From positions 47,999-111,998 of the forward strand of contig JBMOLF010000007.1 in assembly GCA_049325595.1 (NCBI GenBank): a stretch of DNA of 64,000 nt, in the 5' to 3' direction. The position numbers are program-made. Positions 48,001 through 57,000 of the stretch are shown piece after piece. The stretch comes from Candidatus Babelota bacterium (GTDB lineage: Bacteria; Babelota; Babeliae; Babelales; Vermiphilaceae). The stretch's first letter is position 1, and each line of letters starts with the position of its first letter.

Positions 48001-51000
48001 TTTTATGTTGATGCAGATTTTTTTGTGATTGATTTATATTGGTTATGCCAGTTTTTATAGCCAACCTTATATTCTTTATTATGAGAATATTGATTCATTA
48101 ATTGTTTATAAAGATGGCAAATTTTTTTTGCATGACTTCGTGAGATTAAAGATATTTTATTAAGTTTTGTTAATCGTTGCTTAAGGGATTCATTAATTTG
48201 GCAAATATGTGAAACGACCTCGTGATTAAGTGAAGCTTCAATAACAGATTCATCAATAATGGCATATTCAGATAAAAGACGATTAGTTGTCAGCAAGTAA
48301 CCATTTTCTACCGCATGTTGTAATAAAGTTTTGTTATTTATTTTTAAATTTGCATCAAATGATTTGCCTGTTTTGCGTAATGTACTGATAGCCAGGTTTA
48401 ATCGTGCAAGAACCAAGTAATCAATATGTTCTTGTAGCGCTTGTAAAGAAATTACTTTTTTTTGATTTCGGGATAGTTTAGGCAAAGTAGGAATGAGCTG
48501 CTTTAACAAAAAATGGCTCGAAAGCAACGAAAAATTAGGATCTTTTTTGATTGAGTAATTTAATTTTTTTAAATATTTCTGTTCTTGTTTATGATCTAAA
48601 TTTAACTGATTCAATATTTTTGATGGACCAGTTGCAGAGCTTTTTACACAGAAAAATAAGAGCGAGATTGCTAGTAAGCGCATTTGTTCCCTTTTTATTA
48701 TATCCCGATCTTAATATTCTATTAAATTTAGTTGTTTATCAACAATTCTTTACGAAGATTAGGTTCTTGTGATATCTAATTAATTAGTCAAAAAATATGG
48801 CTATATATTCAAAATTGACAAATTGAATATATTTGATATCATAATTAATGAAAATAAATGGAGGATATTATGAAAAAGATTTTAATTACTTTATTAAGTT
48901 CTTGTCTTTATTTCACTGGTTTTGGTTATACCAAAAAAATGGAATATTTTGAGCATCCAGTAACCCATAATGAAGTCGTAGTTTTTTATGATTTTCATGA
49001 AGATCATCTTTTCCCTCAAGAAGCTAAACAACAAGTCAAAGAAATTGTTGCTATGGCAAAAAAAATGAATGCTCATATTGTGATCGAGAACGTGTGGAAT
49101 TACCAAGGAAGTAATCCTACAATTAAAGAAGATTTACTTAAATGTAAGTATAAAAAACCGGCATTGCTTTTGCGAGATGTACAAGATTTAGCAGAAAAAA
49201 TGGGCGTTGCTGTTACTAATGTTGAATATCGTCAAGATCGTGAATATTCTTCGCGCGAAACGCGTAAGGAATATTGCATTCCTGCACAAGAAGCCTTGCA
49301 AACAGTAACTCAAATTATTGATGCAATTAAATCATTTGATGGGCCTGAAGCGTTAAAAAATTATTATAAAGAAGTATTAAAAACAACTGCTATTATGCAT
49401 GAAAGATTAGTTGAAATTTTAGATGGTAAGAAAACTATTTTAGAGCAACTTGCCCAAGATGAAATTGATAAACAAATAATTGAACTCAAAGCTCATTTAC
49501 CTCAAGATTGTGCTGAAATTGATGCAGATGAAGTGATATTGTTTTACGATTCACAATTACTCAATCCTTTAATGGTAAACAAAGTATATGAGTTGCACAA
49601 AATACCTAATGCCCCCTGTGTTTTTGTAATTGCCGGCTCATTCCATACCTGTGAGGTAAGCCAAATATTACAAGATGTTTTAGGTTATGAACTTGTGGAC
49701 ACGCAAGGTGAACTTGAAGAAGCTTTTACGCCAGCGCAAACAGCATTAGAGTTAGCACAAGTGGAAAAATTCTTTAACGATAGCATATTGTCTACTGTTG
49801 TAGCACAAAAAACTGTTTCCTTGCCTAATGTACCAATGAGCTTACTCGATTTTGGATTTACTCATTTTGTTGTATGATTATAACTCAAACAAATTATCAA
49901 AAAGCTCAGTATATCTGAGCTTTTTTTATCTTAATTTTTAATTAAAATAGCACGTGCTGGTGCAGCCTCTAAGCCAACAATATTAAGCGGTAAACATACT
50001 AAGGTATGCGAACCTTCTGCAACAGAAGCTAATCTAAGGCCCTCAATTATAGTGATACCATGAGTGAACAAGATGCTATGAGTTTCATGATTAAGTTGCC
50101 CACGTTCAATCCCTAGATAATCAATTCCTACTGTTTTAATATTATTTTCAACGCACCATTGTGCACCACTGTGATCAAGAAAAACAAAATTAGAATTAAA
50201 TAAATCGGTATTATTTAAAAAACTATTTTTTGTTTTAAAAAGCAAAATATTATTGCTTTGTGGATCTACTTTTTGTTCCAAATATGTTTTGTTAATCGAC
50301 TCGGTAAGATCAGTGCAATCAACCACTGTGCAAGGCCCTACCAAGGTAGCAAGGTTAAGTTGATCAATGGTTGTTCCCTGCTCCAAAAAATGTGCAGGGG
50401 CATCTACATGAGTGCCAGTATGGCAACTTAAGGTAATGATGCTTTCACGTGCATGATCGCGCTCAAATTCTTTTGTCGGAACAAATTCAACTGTTTTTTT
50501 GTTTTTATAACTGGTAATAGCAGTACTAATAGGCCAACTAATATCGATTATTTCCATATAAAAACCTTAATCATTTGATTTTTTAAAGGCATGGCCGCCA
50601 AATGCATTACGTAATAAGGCAACCACTTTTGTTGCAAAATTGCCACCAGTTTGTCGTGACCATCGGCGTACTTCTAATGATTTTTCTATGACTGGAATTT
50701 CTATTGCATTAGCATGTGCTTCTTCTACCGTCCATGCTCCCGTGCCACTTTCTTCAATTTCACCCGATATGTTTTGAAGGTCTTGGTCTTTGGTAAAAAT
50801 AGTGTGTGATAATTCTAAAAGCCAGCTGCGAATTACAGCACCATGATTCCACACGCGGGTAATTTCTTCCAAATTAAGATGATCAGCTTTAAATGAACCT
50901 TCTTTGATTAATTCAAAACCCTCAGCATAGGCTTGCATAAGGCCATACTCAATACCATTATGTATCATTTTTACGTAATGGCCGGTGCCAGATTTACCCA

Positions 51001-54000: not shown

Positions 54001-57000
54001 TTTGCAGGGATTGTGTGTCATGTGGAACATTAATAAACGCATAGGGTGTTTGATAACCCTGCGATTGGGCATTTTTAAGATGATTAATCTCAGATTGTAG
54101 CTGTTGATTGATCTCGTTTAATATGTCACTGCTTAACAAAGCGCTGTTTTGATAAGAAAGAGTAAAATGCGTCACAAAACTATCCTTTTCTTCTAAACAC
54201 CGGTAAGGTAAAAACAGGTTTATCCTAGCAAGAGAATTTATTTTCTGTTAAGAGAAAATGTTTTTAAGGAGTATGAATGAATAATCGTTATTCTACTTTA
54301 CAATCTTACGCATTATTGCTTGTACGTCTAGTTGTTGGTTCTGTTTTTATGTTGCATGGACTACAAAAAGTTTTTGGGTTATTTGGTGGGCCAGGTCTGA
54401 CTGGCTTTGCAACATGGATAGCAAGCATGGGAGTGCCGGCTTTTTTAGGTTATGCTGCTGCATTGGTTGAACTTGCCAGTGGTATTATGATTTTTTTTGG
54501 TATTGCCACAGAATTAGGTGCAGTCTTGGTTATACCACTTATGAAAGTTGCTATCTATTTAGTGCATTGGAAAAATGGATACTTTATACAAAATGAAGGT
54601 TATGAGTATGCATTAAACCTTTTATTGCTTGCAGTAGCGCTTATTATTGGTGGGCCCGGAGCAGGTGCACTATGGGATCCATTCAAAAAATGGAGAATAT
54701 TAAAAAAGAGTTATTAAAAGCCCTTAATTTGACAATTTTATACCTTGCTATACCTTTGATTGAGTAACAGAATTATTGCAAAATTATTATTTATTGCAAT
54801 TTGAATGGTTGTCTTTTGGGGAGGTTGACCATGCATCTTTGGTATAGCAGGATTTATATTCTGCTTTGTTTAATTCCACTAGCAGGATGTGGCCCGCGCT
54901 ATAAGCGCACGCAACTTGCACCGCTTTCAAATAAGAATGCTGAATATGTTTCTACCAAAAGTAATGTTACGGTAAGAGCGGTAAAATTACCCAAATCTGC
55001 AATAAAAAACCTTTTTGATGGTAGAGGAGTTAAAATTACTCGCTATCCGATTTCAGTTATTCAACTTTCATTAAGCAATTATCACAATATTCCCTTGTTT
55101 TTAACAACGCAGCAGGTGGGCTTAGTATTGCTTTCAGATAAATCTATTAAAGACATATGTTTTGATTCAAAATCAGGCTATATACTTAAAGATTGTTTCA
55201 AAGGATTAGGTATTGCAACTATGGTTACCGCAATGAGTTGTGCTCCATTAGCATTTGGCGTAATACCCATAGGTTATTATTGTGCCCTAGCAGGTGGCTG
55301 TGTAGCAGCTGGCACAGTGGTGGCTACACCACTAGTAAGTTTTTTCCAAACCAAGAAAAACGTTTGCTTGTCTAATCAGCTACTTAATGCTGATATTAAC
55401 CAAACGTTGTTGTTTGATAGCTTTATGATACCATCATGTCAAACGCGCCAATGTCTTTTATTTGTTCTACAAAAAGATTACAAGCCCAAATTTGCAATAA
55501 CGCTTACTGATCAACATAATAAAGAAATTCAAACATTTACTATTAAATTACCATGATGAGCTATAAATTTTCTTTACTGATATTTAGTCTTTTAATCCTT
55601 GCCGGCTGTGGTCGCCCGCGTTATAACGTGTGCCCATTAAAACCTGTACATAAACGTGCTGCACTTTATTCAGAAAAAAAAGATGGAATAAAAGTGCGGG
55701 TAAAGCGTTTAAATCAAGAGCAAACTAACAAATTATTTAGAGGAAGAGGAAAAAGGCTTAAGCAGTCGCGCCATGGACAAGGTATTGTTCCGTTGCATTT
55801 TACCATAAAAAATTACCACGAACTACCCATAACGGTAGAAAAAAAAGACATTGAATTGCCTCTTGTTGATTATGCACAAGTTGCTAAAAGAATGTTTTCT
55901 TCAACAACTAAACGAGTGGCCGCGCTTGCGGTAATTGGTATTGGTTGCACCGCTTTGACATTTGCCGGATCATGCGTGTGTGGACTTGTCGGCGCAATGT
56001 CGGGATTGCCAATTTTCATAGCCGCTTCATATGGGACGGGGATGCTCAGCGGGGCGTTACTGGTGGGAACTCCTGTGGTAACATACCTCAATGCGTCTGG
56101 TTCGCGGGAAGTAAACCAATTAATTTATAAAGATATTTATCAAAAAACGGTTGTTGATGTATTGGCTATTAAACCGTTTAGTGAAGAAACATTTCTTGTT
56201 TTTATTACCGAGAAGGATAAAAAAAATAGATTTGCTATGAAAGTAAAGCATGAGAATGGTAATGAAACACTTTTTGCTATTGATTTAAACTATTCATAGG
56301 AATTATATGAAATTGTTATCAGCTATTTATAAGGGAGTAGTGATAGCGAGTTTGTTAGTTTTAGTTCCAGCCTGTGGTCCACGTTATAAAAAAAGAAATT
56401 TACACCCCTTAACCAGTGTTAATGCAGATTTTCAAGAAACAAAAAATGAGTTAACCGTACGAGCAAAATCATTAACCTCACCAGAGACCAACGTCTTATT
56501 TAATGGCAGAGGAACTGACTTATTTAATGAGTCAAAAAATCAAATTCATGCAATACAGCTTTCATGCTTAAATCAGTCTGACAAGGTGTATACCGTTGAT
56601 AAAAAATCCATAGGGATACCATTAGTAGAAATTGAAAAACTATATAAGAAAATGGCATGGTCTCCAGGAGCTCAGGTTACTGCTGCAGCGCTTGGTGGTT
56701 GTGCGCTTGGTATTGGAATAACTGCTGGAAATGCCTATTTGCTTTCAACAGGAGTTTTCTTTACTATGCCGCTTGTTGCAAGTGTTGCTGGATTGACAGC
56801 TATGTTTGTTCCGTATTCGCTTCTTTTTGGAATACCATATGTTTGTTACTCATTAGCTAAAAACGGACGAGCAGCAAATCACGCGTTGGAAAAAGATCTT
56901 GCTAACAAATCATTAACTGACTGTTTAGTTATTTCTCCAAAACAACAAAAAGATTGGTTGATTTTTGTAAATCATACTGATTTTAATCCGTCATTTTTAA

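Follow-up and report, generated by a model that had tools for sequence, protein, structure and literature searches.

The bacterium analysed here, a member of the Babelota, lacks a recognisable NAD kinase and recognisable genes of NAD synthesis, and the two dehydrogenases of its oxidative pentose-phosphate branch carry coenzyme signatures of the NAD type and of the dual type. The reading which we favour, at slightly better than even chances, is that NAD+ is imported, that the core cytoplasmic redox is run on NAD(H), and that there is only a small need for NADP(H), which may be satisfied outside the cytoplasm. The analysed window is the whole stretch of 64,000 nucleotides, and the positions of the operon are given in window coordinates.

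A missing NAD kinase had been claimed for this genome in the preliminary description, and this is borne out by searches with PF01513, PF20143 and phmmer, all without a credible match. In the genome (94.96% complete, 24 contigs) no match was obtained for PF01513, which was found in 14 of 14 control genomes, nor for PF20143, which was found in 12 of 14, and a phmmer search of its 5743 six-frame ORFs with the two NAD kinases found in the phylum returned a single match at E 0.011. The genus-mate G246, a single contig, likewise gave no NAD kinase with PF01513 or PF20143. Six-frame searches in which the two domain models agree put the absence at 259 of 261 Babelota genomes, the exceptions being G008 and G009, which carry a canonical two-domain NAD kinase at 81-123 bits; when only genomes of 90% completeness or more and 5% contamination or less are counted, the kinase is present in 1 of 189 (G009). 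The earlier count of 0 of 101 is thus not sustained in this wider set, and the absence is not strictly phylum-wide. The neighbours of the kinase genes in G008 and G009 are not shared, and homologues of these neighbours were not found in the genome under study.

Several weaker candidates were considered and rejected. PF01513 gave matches of 12-15 bits in 17 genomes, and the four that were scanned are ABC substrate-binding (ABC_sub_bind), TonB and PGK proteins. The weak matches of PF20143 in G192, G188 and G083 are lactonase-like beta-propellers or belong to no family, and are dissimilar to the true kinases. DAGK_cat (PF00781), a relative of NAD kinase, had no match in the genome.

The claim that NAD synthesis is also missing was supported, as NadD-type and NadE genes were not found. 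PF01467 (the NadD/NadR/NMNAT type adenylyltransferase) had no match and PF02540 (NadE) none over its cut-off, with only 11.9 and 10.3 bits, while each was detected in 14 of 14 controls; a strong NadE match occurs in only 2 of the 261 Babelota genomes. With both NAD kinase and NAD synthesis missing, the bacterium must obtain its NAD from outside. The two tandem TLC genes reported earlier are present and are the sole recognisable nucleotide carriers found in this genome. At 68 bits for one and a summed 98 bits for the other, both exceed the Pfam PF03219 cut-off of 21 bits, and both lie far under the TIGR00769 cut-off of 387 (63 and 85 bits), hence far from the characterised NTTs; plastid NTT1 (9j3j) is matched at E 6.3e-18. 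Uptake of host NAD+ would most plausibly proceed through one of these two divergent TLC-type carriers.

The row of genes described earlier at 50567-54175 was recovered as an operon of three abutting minus-strand ORFs, pgi, zwf and gnd. The first gene, pgi (52850..54175, minus strand), is a 441-aa ORF for glucose-6-phosphate isomerase with a Pfam PGI match at E 7.3e-29, and its top NCBIfam model, NF010697, reaches 258 bits under a cut-off of 443. It is followed by zwf for glucose-6-phosphate dehydrogenase (51463..52863, minus strand; probable ATG at 52857), whose identity rests on the presence of G6PD_N and G6PD_C and on TIGR00871 at 464.4 bits against a cut-off of 400.6. The third gene, gnd (50567..51475, minus strand; probable ATG at 51466), encodes a short-chain 6-phosphogluconate dehydrogenase of about 300 aa recognised by TIGR00872 and NF007161. 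The TAA stop codon of pgi lies 3 nt past the zwf ATG, so that the reading frames overlap, and the zwf stop and the gnd start share an ATGA overlap. Scanning the operon for promoters and terminators gave 13 sites against 15.4 in shuffled sequences, which is no excess.

The typing of gnd as NADP-dependent is ambiguous, since the protein passes NF007161, named 'NADP-dependent' (374.8 bits, cut-off 271), and, at 343.4 bits over a cut-off of 297.2, also TIGR00872, named 'NAD(+)-dependent, decarboxylating'. It stays far under the cut-offs of the long-form NADP models TIGR00873 and NF006765, and with 302 aa and a 6PGD match covering only positions 1-116 of the 290 in the profile it is a short-chain 6PGDH (TIGR00872, gnd_rel). 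The fingerprint is GLGRMG (GxGxxG) and the beta2-alpha2 loop reads Asp-Pro-Ala in place of the NADP-specific Asn-Arg-Thr. As stated in a passage of PMC8900737, Asn-Arg-Thr gives NADP specificity, Asp replacing the Asn hinders the 2'-phosphate, and Asp-Arg-Asp gives the Gluconacetobacter diazotrophicus enzyme its NAD+ preference. The nearest solved structures are 6vpb (G. diazotrophicus, E 2.8e-72), 6xeq (Gluconobacter oxydans) and 8ihe (M. tuberculosis Gnd2, named NAD(+)-dependent), all of them short-chain enzymes whose about 300-350 aa include only one all-helix domain. The gnd protein shares with them (E 1e-66 to 1e-72) this build, the GxGxxG and the Asp that closes beta2, but their loops, Asp-Arg-Asp or Asp-Arg-Thr, hold an Arg which it lacks. 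Fifty Babelota gnd sequences were read, 30 from the loci with the best scores and 20 hand-picked from other families; all 50 keep GxGxxG and 49 keep the Asp, with Arg or Lys beside the Asp in only 4. The enzyme appears to be an NAD+-preferring short-chain dehydrogenase.

The coenzyme loops of zwf read 'GATGDL' and 'GTARD', and in alignments to PDB entries Thr falls where the E. coli enzyme has K18 and Arg where it has R50, so that one of the two residues of the E. coli-type NADP-specific signature (Lys18 and Arg50) is present and the pattern is that of dual-coenzyme enzymes. According to a passage of PMC4807051, K18 and R50 carry all NADP+ discrimination in E. coli G6PDH, the double mutant showing none, and Thr at position 18 is typical of dual-coenzyme enzymes. 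The same pair, Thr and Arg, is found in the dual-coenzyme G6PDH of Leuconostoc mesenteroides (1dpg, E 2.6e-75). Thr or Ser occupies the K18 position in 45 of 45 readable Babelota zwf sequences, and the R50 position in 44 sequences (our genome included), by a motif-anchored reading, holds Arg in 8, Lys in 2, His in 1 and non-basic residues in 33, usually with Asp or Glu next after it; unlike 1dpg, most Babelota enzymes thus lack the Arg too. The zwf enzyme probably can use NAD+ in a dual-type pocket and, as it keeps the Arg which binds the 2'-phosphate, may well use NADP+. With the NAD-type signature of gnd and the dual-type signature of zwf, the earlier notion of an NADP-dependent pentose-phosphate branch is left unsupported; nor does the operon require the NADP carrier that had been called for, although such a carrier in this bacterium is possible.

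All three thioredoxin-reductase-like proteins reported for the genome were confirmed. The cytoplasmic TrxB (G000 C15:28498-29430; TIGR01292, 395 bits) keeps CxxC and GGGDTA, and HRRxxxR, in a register set by alignment to 6bwt, reads HIKSKLT, which leaves it outside the motif set of the NADPH-thioredoxin reductases (NTR). All 30 loci from an even sample of 37 Babelota genomes show the motif changed to H/Q-I-(not R)-x-x-x-T/S, and it is likewise gone from the TrxB of G008, G009 and G010, which makes 33 of 33 genomes examined. A passage of PMC6262447 reports that thioredoxin reductases without HRRxxxR use NADH (Thermoplasma acidophilum) or F420 (M. jannaschii); the TrxB described here resembles the NADH-dependent T. 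acidophilum enzyme in this lack, but unlike it keeps GxGxxA and is otherwise an ordinary bacterial TrxB. As the NAD-type motifs of gnd and TrxB are present in the NAD kinase-bearing G008 and G009 too, they are not a direct consequence of the loss of the kinase.

Other enzymes retain sites of the NADPH type. The loop of a TrxR-Trx fusion (C15:202196-203710) reads VRKDKMR, in part agreement with the NTR motif, and all 20 orthologues fetched keep the first Arg, while at the last basic position 17 of them have Arg and 3 have Lys, which argues that NADPH is still used somewhere. The fusion, of 505 aa, is nearest to the NTRC-type TrxR-Trx fusion 7p9d (487 aa) and shares with it the Arg-containing loop; unlike 7p9d, the Babelota fusions bear hydrophobic N-terminal extensions. 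The GDP-fucose synthase Fcl, correctly reported earlier, keeps 'GHRG' and 'TRTKDEL', which are presumably NADPH contacts. MurB and ThyX, which commonly depend on NADPH, are also encoded and show no export signal. A class-I pyridine-nucleotide disulfide oxidoreductase outside the operon (43438..44904, minus strand; 489-aa ORF with Pyr_redox_2 and Pyr_redox_dim) is under every NCBIfam cut-off, and its second Rossmann strand ends in Glu ('YLIEQH'), presumably the usual NAD-type residue. PntB transhydrogenase had no match in this genome, and isocitrate dehydrogenase, malic enzyme and an FNR-type domain were not found; the inventory, which covers eleven named families and those 72 of the 1264 long ORFs that bear a strict Rossmann motif, is for that reason not exhaustive. 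The N-termini of the TrxR-Trx fusions and of Fcl are hydrophobic and signal-peptide-like or anchor-like, as judged by eye and with a hydropathy window, and an internal start codon could remove them in some genes. As a passage of PMC6561590 gives signal peptides for 44% of the coding sequences of a cultured relative, such signals may mean little.

In the favoured reading, which takes every coenzyme preference from sequence motifs, NAD synthesis and NAD phosphorylation would both be beyond the bacterium, a state common to almost the whole phylum, and NAD+ would be taken from the host, most plausibly via a TLC-type carrier. The oxidative pentose-phosphate branch encoded by the pgi-zwf-gnd operon would be linked to NAD(H), and TrxB, the housekeeping reductase, would work without the cluster of arginines by which NADPH is held at its 2'-phosphate. 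With the core cytoplasmic redox apparently re-tooled to NAD(H) in this way, NAD kinase would become dispensable. The TrxR-Trx fusions and GDP-fucose synthase, their NADPH-type sites kept, may draw on host NADPH outside the cytoplasm or else on a small pool brought in by import; given these sites together with MurB and ThyX, some host NADP(H) may be used. A wider proposition is put forward only tentatively, namely that in Babelota, and perhaps in further host-dependent lineages, most Patescibacteria among them, the cytoplasm could be essentially without NADP(H), the dehydrogenases and TrxB being re-tooled to NAD(H) and the NADPH-type enzymes being exported or anchored and supplied by host NADPH; if this is true, these would be the first cells known to give up NADP as an internal coenzyme.

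It is unlikely, though worth serious weight, that NADP is required by the pentose-phosphate branch and by other enzymes and that ready-made host NADP(H) enters through a TLC-type carrier of new specificity. Such import would agree with the missing kinase, with the 2'-phosphate Arg of zwf, with the NADPH-type loop of the fusions phylum-wide, with the presence of Fcl, MurB and ThyX, and with the high divergence of the two TLC genes; passages in the literature describe substitutions at key residues of TM6 translocase paralogues (PMC4776705) and inhibition by NADP+ of ATP uptake by microsporidian NTTs (PMC5923384). It is opposed by the NAD-type gnd site in 49 of 50 sequences, by the zwf of most relatives, which lacks both positive residues, and by a TrxB without HRRxxxR. 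Moreover, neither an NADP+-reducing enzyme other than possibly zwf nor a transhydrogenase was found, and for most of the phylum it is hard to see how imported NADP(H) would be recycled. Synthesis of NADP within the cell by an enzyme that is non-homologous to known NAD kinases, or too divergent to detect, would agree, if only indirectly, with the persistence of NADPH-type sites in some enzymes, but we consider it improbable, as the two domain models gave no credible match in 259 genomes while scoring the G008 and G009 kinases at 81-123 bits, and as the related DAGK_cat family is absent from the genome too. To our knowledge, no non-homologous NAD kinase has been described. An artefact of incomplete assembly, which the 24 contigs and 94.96% completeness of this genome might suggest, can be practically dismissed, because the single-contig genomes G246, G183, G185, G242, G251 and G252 also lack the kinase and 259 of 261 genomes are without it against 14 of 14 controls with it.

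The searches show NAD kinase to be missing from nearly a whole phylum, and they did not find it either in most of the Patescibacteria sampled or in the small-genome Chlamydiota; for Babelota the sequence evidence, in which three unrelated enzyme families have sites unfit for the 2'-phosphate, points to a solution other than the import of NADP. If assays confirm a cytoplasm run on imported NAD+, life would be possible with little or no NADP of its own, which would bear on the question of which parts of the NAD/NADP split are indispensable and on how 'NADP-dependent' annotations in reduced genomes are to be read. A literature search for 'NAD kinase' with 'Dependentiae' or 'Patescibacteria', whose scope leaves aside supplementary tables and papers that use only nadK or ppnK, found no paper, and a full-text term search of two papers, the comparative one on TM6 and the one on Chromulinavorax, found no mention of NADPH or NAD kinase.

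The eLife passage (PMC9208755) reads as quoted in the preliminary description: NAD kinase is commonly presented as a universal and essential enzyme, and Chlamydia is the only exception which that passage states. In our searches PF01513 had no match in a Chlamydia genome. Of the 61 Chlamydiota sampled, 22 gave no NAD kinase, all of 1.0-1.3 Mb, while four environmental families have it, and of the 101 Patescibacteria sampled 86 were without a PF01513 match, so that Babelota cannot be, as had been proposed, the lone second exception. Import of NAD(P) without NAD kinase beside an intact pentose-phosphate pathway has already been proposed for Chlamydia trachomatis in a passage of PMC3136453, and citing papers attribute NAD uptake in the Chlamydiaceae to the Npt1 translocase. 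Like Chlamydia as portrayed in passages of PMC3136453 and PMC9208755, the present bacterium is obligately host-dependent and without NAD synthesis and NAD kinase, and like it has TLC-family carriers together with zwf and gnd. In Chlamydiota the loss is confined to small genomes, whereas 259 of 261 Babelota are without the kinase, and the Babelota dehydrogenases and TrxB bear NAD-type or non-NADPH motifs, a comparison in which the motifs are read on the Babelota side. Rickettsia, environmental chlamydiae and Microsporidia, presented in passages of PMC5615194 and PMC5923384, are similar in that they live as parasites on energy and cofactors, have NTT/TLC carriers and import NAD+; unlike the genome studied here they keep NAD kinase, and Rickettsia a transhydrogenase too, so that NADP(H) is made inside their cells.

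The genes pgi, zwf and gnd were found on the minus strand of the window at 52850-54175 (pgi, Pfam family PGI), 51463-52863 (zwf, G6PD_N and G6PD_C domains, 464 bits on TIGR00871 against a cut-off of 401) and 50567-51475 (gnd, NAD_binding_2 and a short 6PGD domain), where the preliminary description had placed them. Within a shared ATGA, zwf ends and gnd begins, and the pgi stop comes 3 nt after the zwf ATG; the three genes therefore make up a single operon. The genome, of which the window is contig 7, measures 1.286 Mb in 24 contigs, is 94.96% complete and has 34.7% G+C. After gnd, and in the same orientation, a cyclase-family gene follows at a distance of 9 nt (49931-50557, minus) and may be on the same transcript; it is arylformamidase-like, with 127 bits, below the model cut-off of 223.

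The gnd product scores over the cut-offs of two NCBIfam models with contrary coenzyme names, so the earlier label "NADP-dependent" is matched by one model and contradicted by the other. Among solved structures it comes nearest to the short-chain enzymes 6vpb, 6xeq/10gw, 4e21 and 8ihe, of which 8ihe was deposited under the name NAD(+)-dependent. According to the parts used here of PMC8900737, a structural review of 6PGDH, NADP+ specificity of 6PGDH is set by Asn32-Arg33-Thr34 of the beta2-alpha2 turn, which bind the 2'-phosphate, this phosphate is hindered where Asp replaces Asn, the NAD+ preference of the G. diazotrophicus enzyme is due to Asp-Arg-Asp, and GxGxxG is the fingerprint of the NAD-type cluster, which is mainly tetrameric; NAD+ is also the coenzyme in the assays of the G. 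oxydans enzyme described in an excerpt of bioRxiv 10.64898/2026.01.21.700892. The gnd of the window has the fingerprint GLGRMG and the loop Asp-Pro-Ala. A short gnd occurs in 179 of 261 genomes of the phylum, and the loop was compared in 50 sequences, i.e. the best 30 of the 179 and 20 chosen from other families, with G008 and G009, the two genomes that have an NAD kinase gene, among them. GxGxxG was present in all 50, with Asp in 49 and Asn in one, and Arg or Lys stood beside the Asp position in four sequences only. These motifs are good evidence that gnd would use NAD+.

For E. coli G6PDH, all discrimination of NADP+ is assigned to K18 and R50 in the portion of PMC4807051 drawn on, where K18A/R50A is equal with both coenzymes and Thr at position 18 is common among dual enzymes, the one of L. 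mesenteroides being an example. In the zwf of the window the two stretches are 'GATGDL' and 'GTARD', a combination of Thr and Arg that corresponds to the dual pattern. Of 50 loci flanking gnd genes, 45 had a readable N-terminus and 44 allowed the R50 position to be parsed. The K18 position is Thr in 34 and Ser in 11 of the 45, and basic in none; the R50 position is Arg in 8/44 (the present genome, its genus-mate G246, G231, G008, G009, G010, G011 and G110), Lys in two and His in one, while the remaining 33 have other residues, mainly Phe, Leu or Ile with Asp or Glu directly after it. The residues of this zwf make the evidence for NAD+ equivocal. Given the NAD-type motifs of gnd and the dual pattern of zwf, the operon does not demand NADP, and the view of the branch as NADP-dependent is not upheld.

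All three thioredoxin-reductase-like genes reported earlier were recovered. The cytoplasmic reductase TrxB (311 aa, contig C15:28498-29430, TIGR01292 395 bits) has CxxC and GGGDTA, with HIKSKLT in place of the HRRDTLR of solved enzymes, the register being set by alignment to 6bwt. NADPH-thioredoxin reductases are recognised by GxGxxA and HRRxxxR in the relevant passage of PMC10880999, and enzymes without HRRxxxR use NADH in T. acidophilum and F420 in M. jannaschii as per an extract of PMC6262447. TrxB was present in 37/37 evenly drawn high-quality genomes; in 30 loci from these genomes the first Arg of the motif is Ile in every case, no Arg is seen at the second position and the third holds Thr or Ser, and G008, G009 and G010 have HILDKLT. 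The second gene (C15:202196-203710, minus) encodes a 505-aa fusion of thioredoxin reductase and thioredoxin, with the 487-aa fusion 7p9d as best structure; its loop is VRKDKMRA, compared with VRGERMRA in 7p9d and HRRDEFRA in 5uth. Across the 20 orthologues that were fetched, the first Arg is constant, with Arg (17) or Lys (3) at the last basic position. The third gene, also a fusion (C1:102484-103920, plus), is without the second GxGxxA and stays under the TIGR01292 cut-off. GDP-fucose synthase is present as described (509.6 bits against 500), as are MurB and ThyX genes; PntB was not found in this genome, and neither genome of the genus has isocitrate dehydrogenase, malic enzyme or FNR-type domains.

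A few basic residues and, directly after them, 15-20 hydrophobic ones were seen at the N-termini of the fusions, GDP-fucose synthase, both GMD copies, UDP-glucose dehydrogenase, two further epimerase-family genes and a fucose-dehydrogenase-like SDR, and a dTDP-glucose dehydratase-like enzyme is among the nucleotide-sugar enzymes with signal-peptide-like or anchor-like N-termini. Besides the two fusions, these enzymes lie at C10:44906-48164 (plus), C10:36352-37791 (minus), C9:73872-74840 (minus), C9:76951-78081 (plus) and C7:2216-3112 (plus). The segment of the 505-aa fusion ends in 'LLLPGC', and a similar one is found on fusions of about 25 other genomes. The feature was not seen in gnd, zwf, pgi, TrxB, MurB, GAPDH, LDH and GpsA. 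In some of the genes that have the segment an internal start codon could bypass it, and in a cultured relative putative signal peptides are given for 44% of coding sequences in the consulted part of PMC6561590. The NADPH-type enzymes may act outside the cytoplasm, which is a lead and not a result. On the same contigs, two alanine racemase genes stand in tandem with about 30 nt overlap (C9:16824-19158, minus), and three large ORFs with collagen triple-helix repeats and other domains occur at C1:41476-46139 and C1:51367-52821 (both minus), two of them with DUF5122 beta-propeller repeats and one with a BclA C-terminal domain.

We infer all coenzyme assignments from motifs. The most economical reading, which we consider somewhat favoured, is that NAD+ would be brought in from outside the cell, that the cytoplasmic redox enzymes would be fitted to NAD(H), and that some NADPH need would be left over, unaccounted for. 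Import of NADP(H) itself into the cytoplasm is possible and clearly less probable. The candidate carriers are a tandem pair of TLC-family genes (C23:8283-9680 and 9813-11300, minus), the only members found in this genome; with the NTP/NDP exchanger model, which has a cut-off of 387, they reach 63 and 85 bits, one matches plastid NTT1 with E 6e-18, and for TM6 translocase paralogues a passage of PMC4776705 notes changed key residues and proposes other substrates. The earlier deduction of an NADP carrier from the operon, whose motifs do not require NADP, is not upheld.

An unrecognised NAD kinase is unlikely. PF01513 and PF20143, the C-terminal domain of the enzyme, gave no match in this genome (PF01513 control genomes 14/14), the related family DAGK_cat was not found, and phmmer with two in-phylum NAD kinases against all 5743 six-frame ORFs with a length of 50 aa or more returned one match, at E 0.011. 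Across the phylum, PF01513 exceeded the cut-off in G008 (L001:1321-2379, plus) and G009 (L002:985-1968, minus), both two-domain NAD kinases by Pfam and both recovered by PF20143; the earlier count of 0/101 gives way to 2/261, or 1/189 high-quality genomes, for the phylum. The original observation is upheld once amended for these two exceptions and for the ambiguous name of gnd. The two proteins share 46% identity and their genes no neighbours; ahead of the kinase domain both ORFs start with a hydrophobic extension, about 45-60 residues long and containing 'LLLISAC' in one. Because the G009 genome consists of one contig of 1.5 Mb, a binning error is ruled out for its gene; the congener of G009, G010, has no match to either domain. 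All remaining weak matches that were scanned belong to unrelated families.

The missing NAD synthesis genes were confirmed, with no match to PF01467 and no NAD synthase over the cut-off in this genome. To our knowledge, PF01467 includes all known NMN/NaMN adenylyltransferases. A full-length NAD synthase was found in one genome of the phylum sample (G247, 70 contigs; C31:2974-3690, plus, 258 bits), where its contig is a small one, and may come from contamination or rare acquisition; G184 has a fragment at a contig end (83.5 bits), and the matches in 19 other genomes, with 24-32 bits, cover no more than the initial ~95 positions of the profile, in ORFs of 324-690 aa. That an assembly artefact removed the NAD kinase gene from this nearly complete, 24-contig genome is highly improbable, the gene being so rare in the phylum.

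Chlamydia trachomatis has no NAD synthesis, no NAD kinase and a complete pentose-phosphate pathway, and import of NAD(P) is proposed (portions of PMC3136453 and PMC8292140); NAD kinase is kept by Rickettsia and Microsporidia despite NAD+ import (portions of PMC5615194 and PMC5923384). PF01513 had no match in one Chlamydia genome and matched in one genome each of Parachlamydiaceae, Simkaniaceae, Waddliaceae and Rhabdochlamydiaceae. NAD kinase occurs in 39 of 61 sampled Chlamydiota (G261-G324), and the 22 without it are all of 1.0-1.3 Mb, which confines the loss to the small-genome clade. Literature search returned no paper pairing 'NAD kinase' with 'Patescibacteria', and one Microgenomates and one Saccharibacteria genome, reached by chance, had no PF01513. 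Among 101 sampled Patescibacteria (G325-G415, requested at at least 80% completeness, individual values not displayed) the domain occurs in 15 only and is missing from 86. Babelota had been put forward as the second exception after Chlamydia; by these counts they do not hold that place, as the NAD kinase gene is lacking in several host-dependent lineages, Babelota among them.
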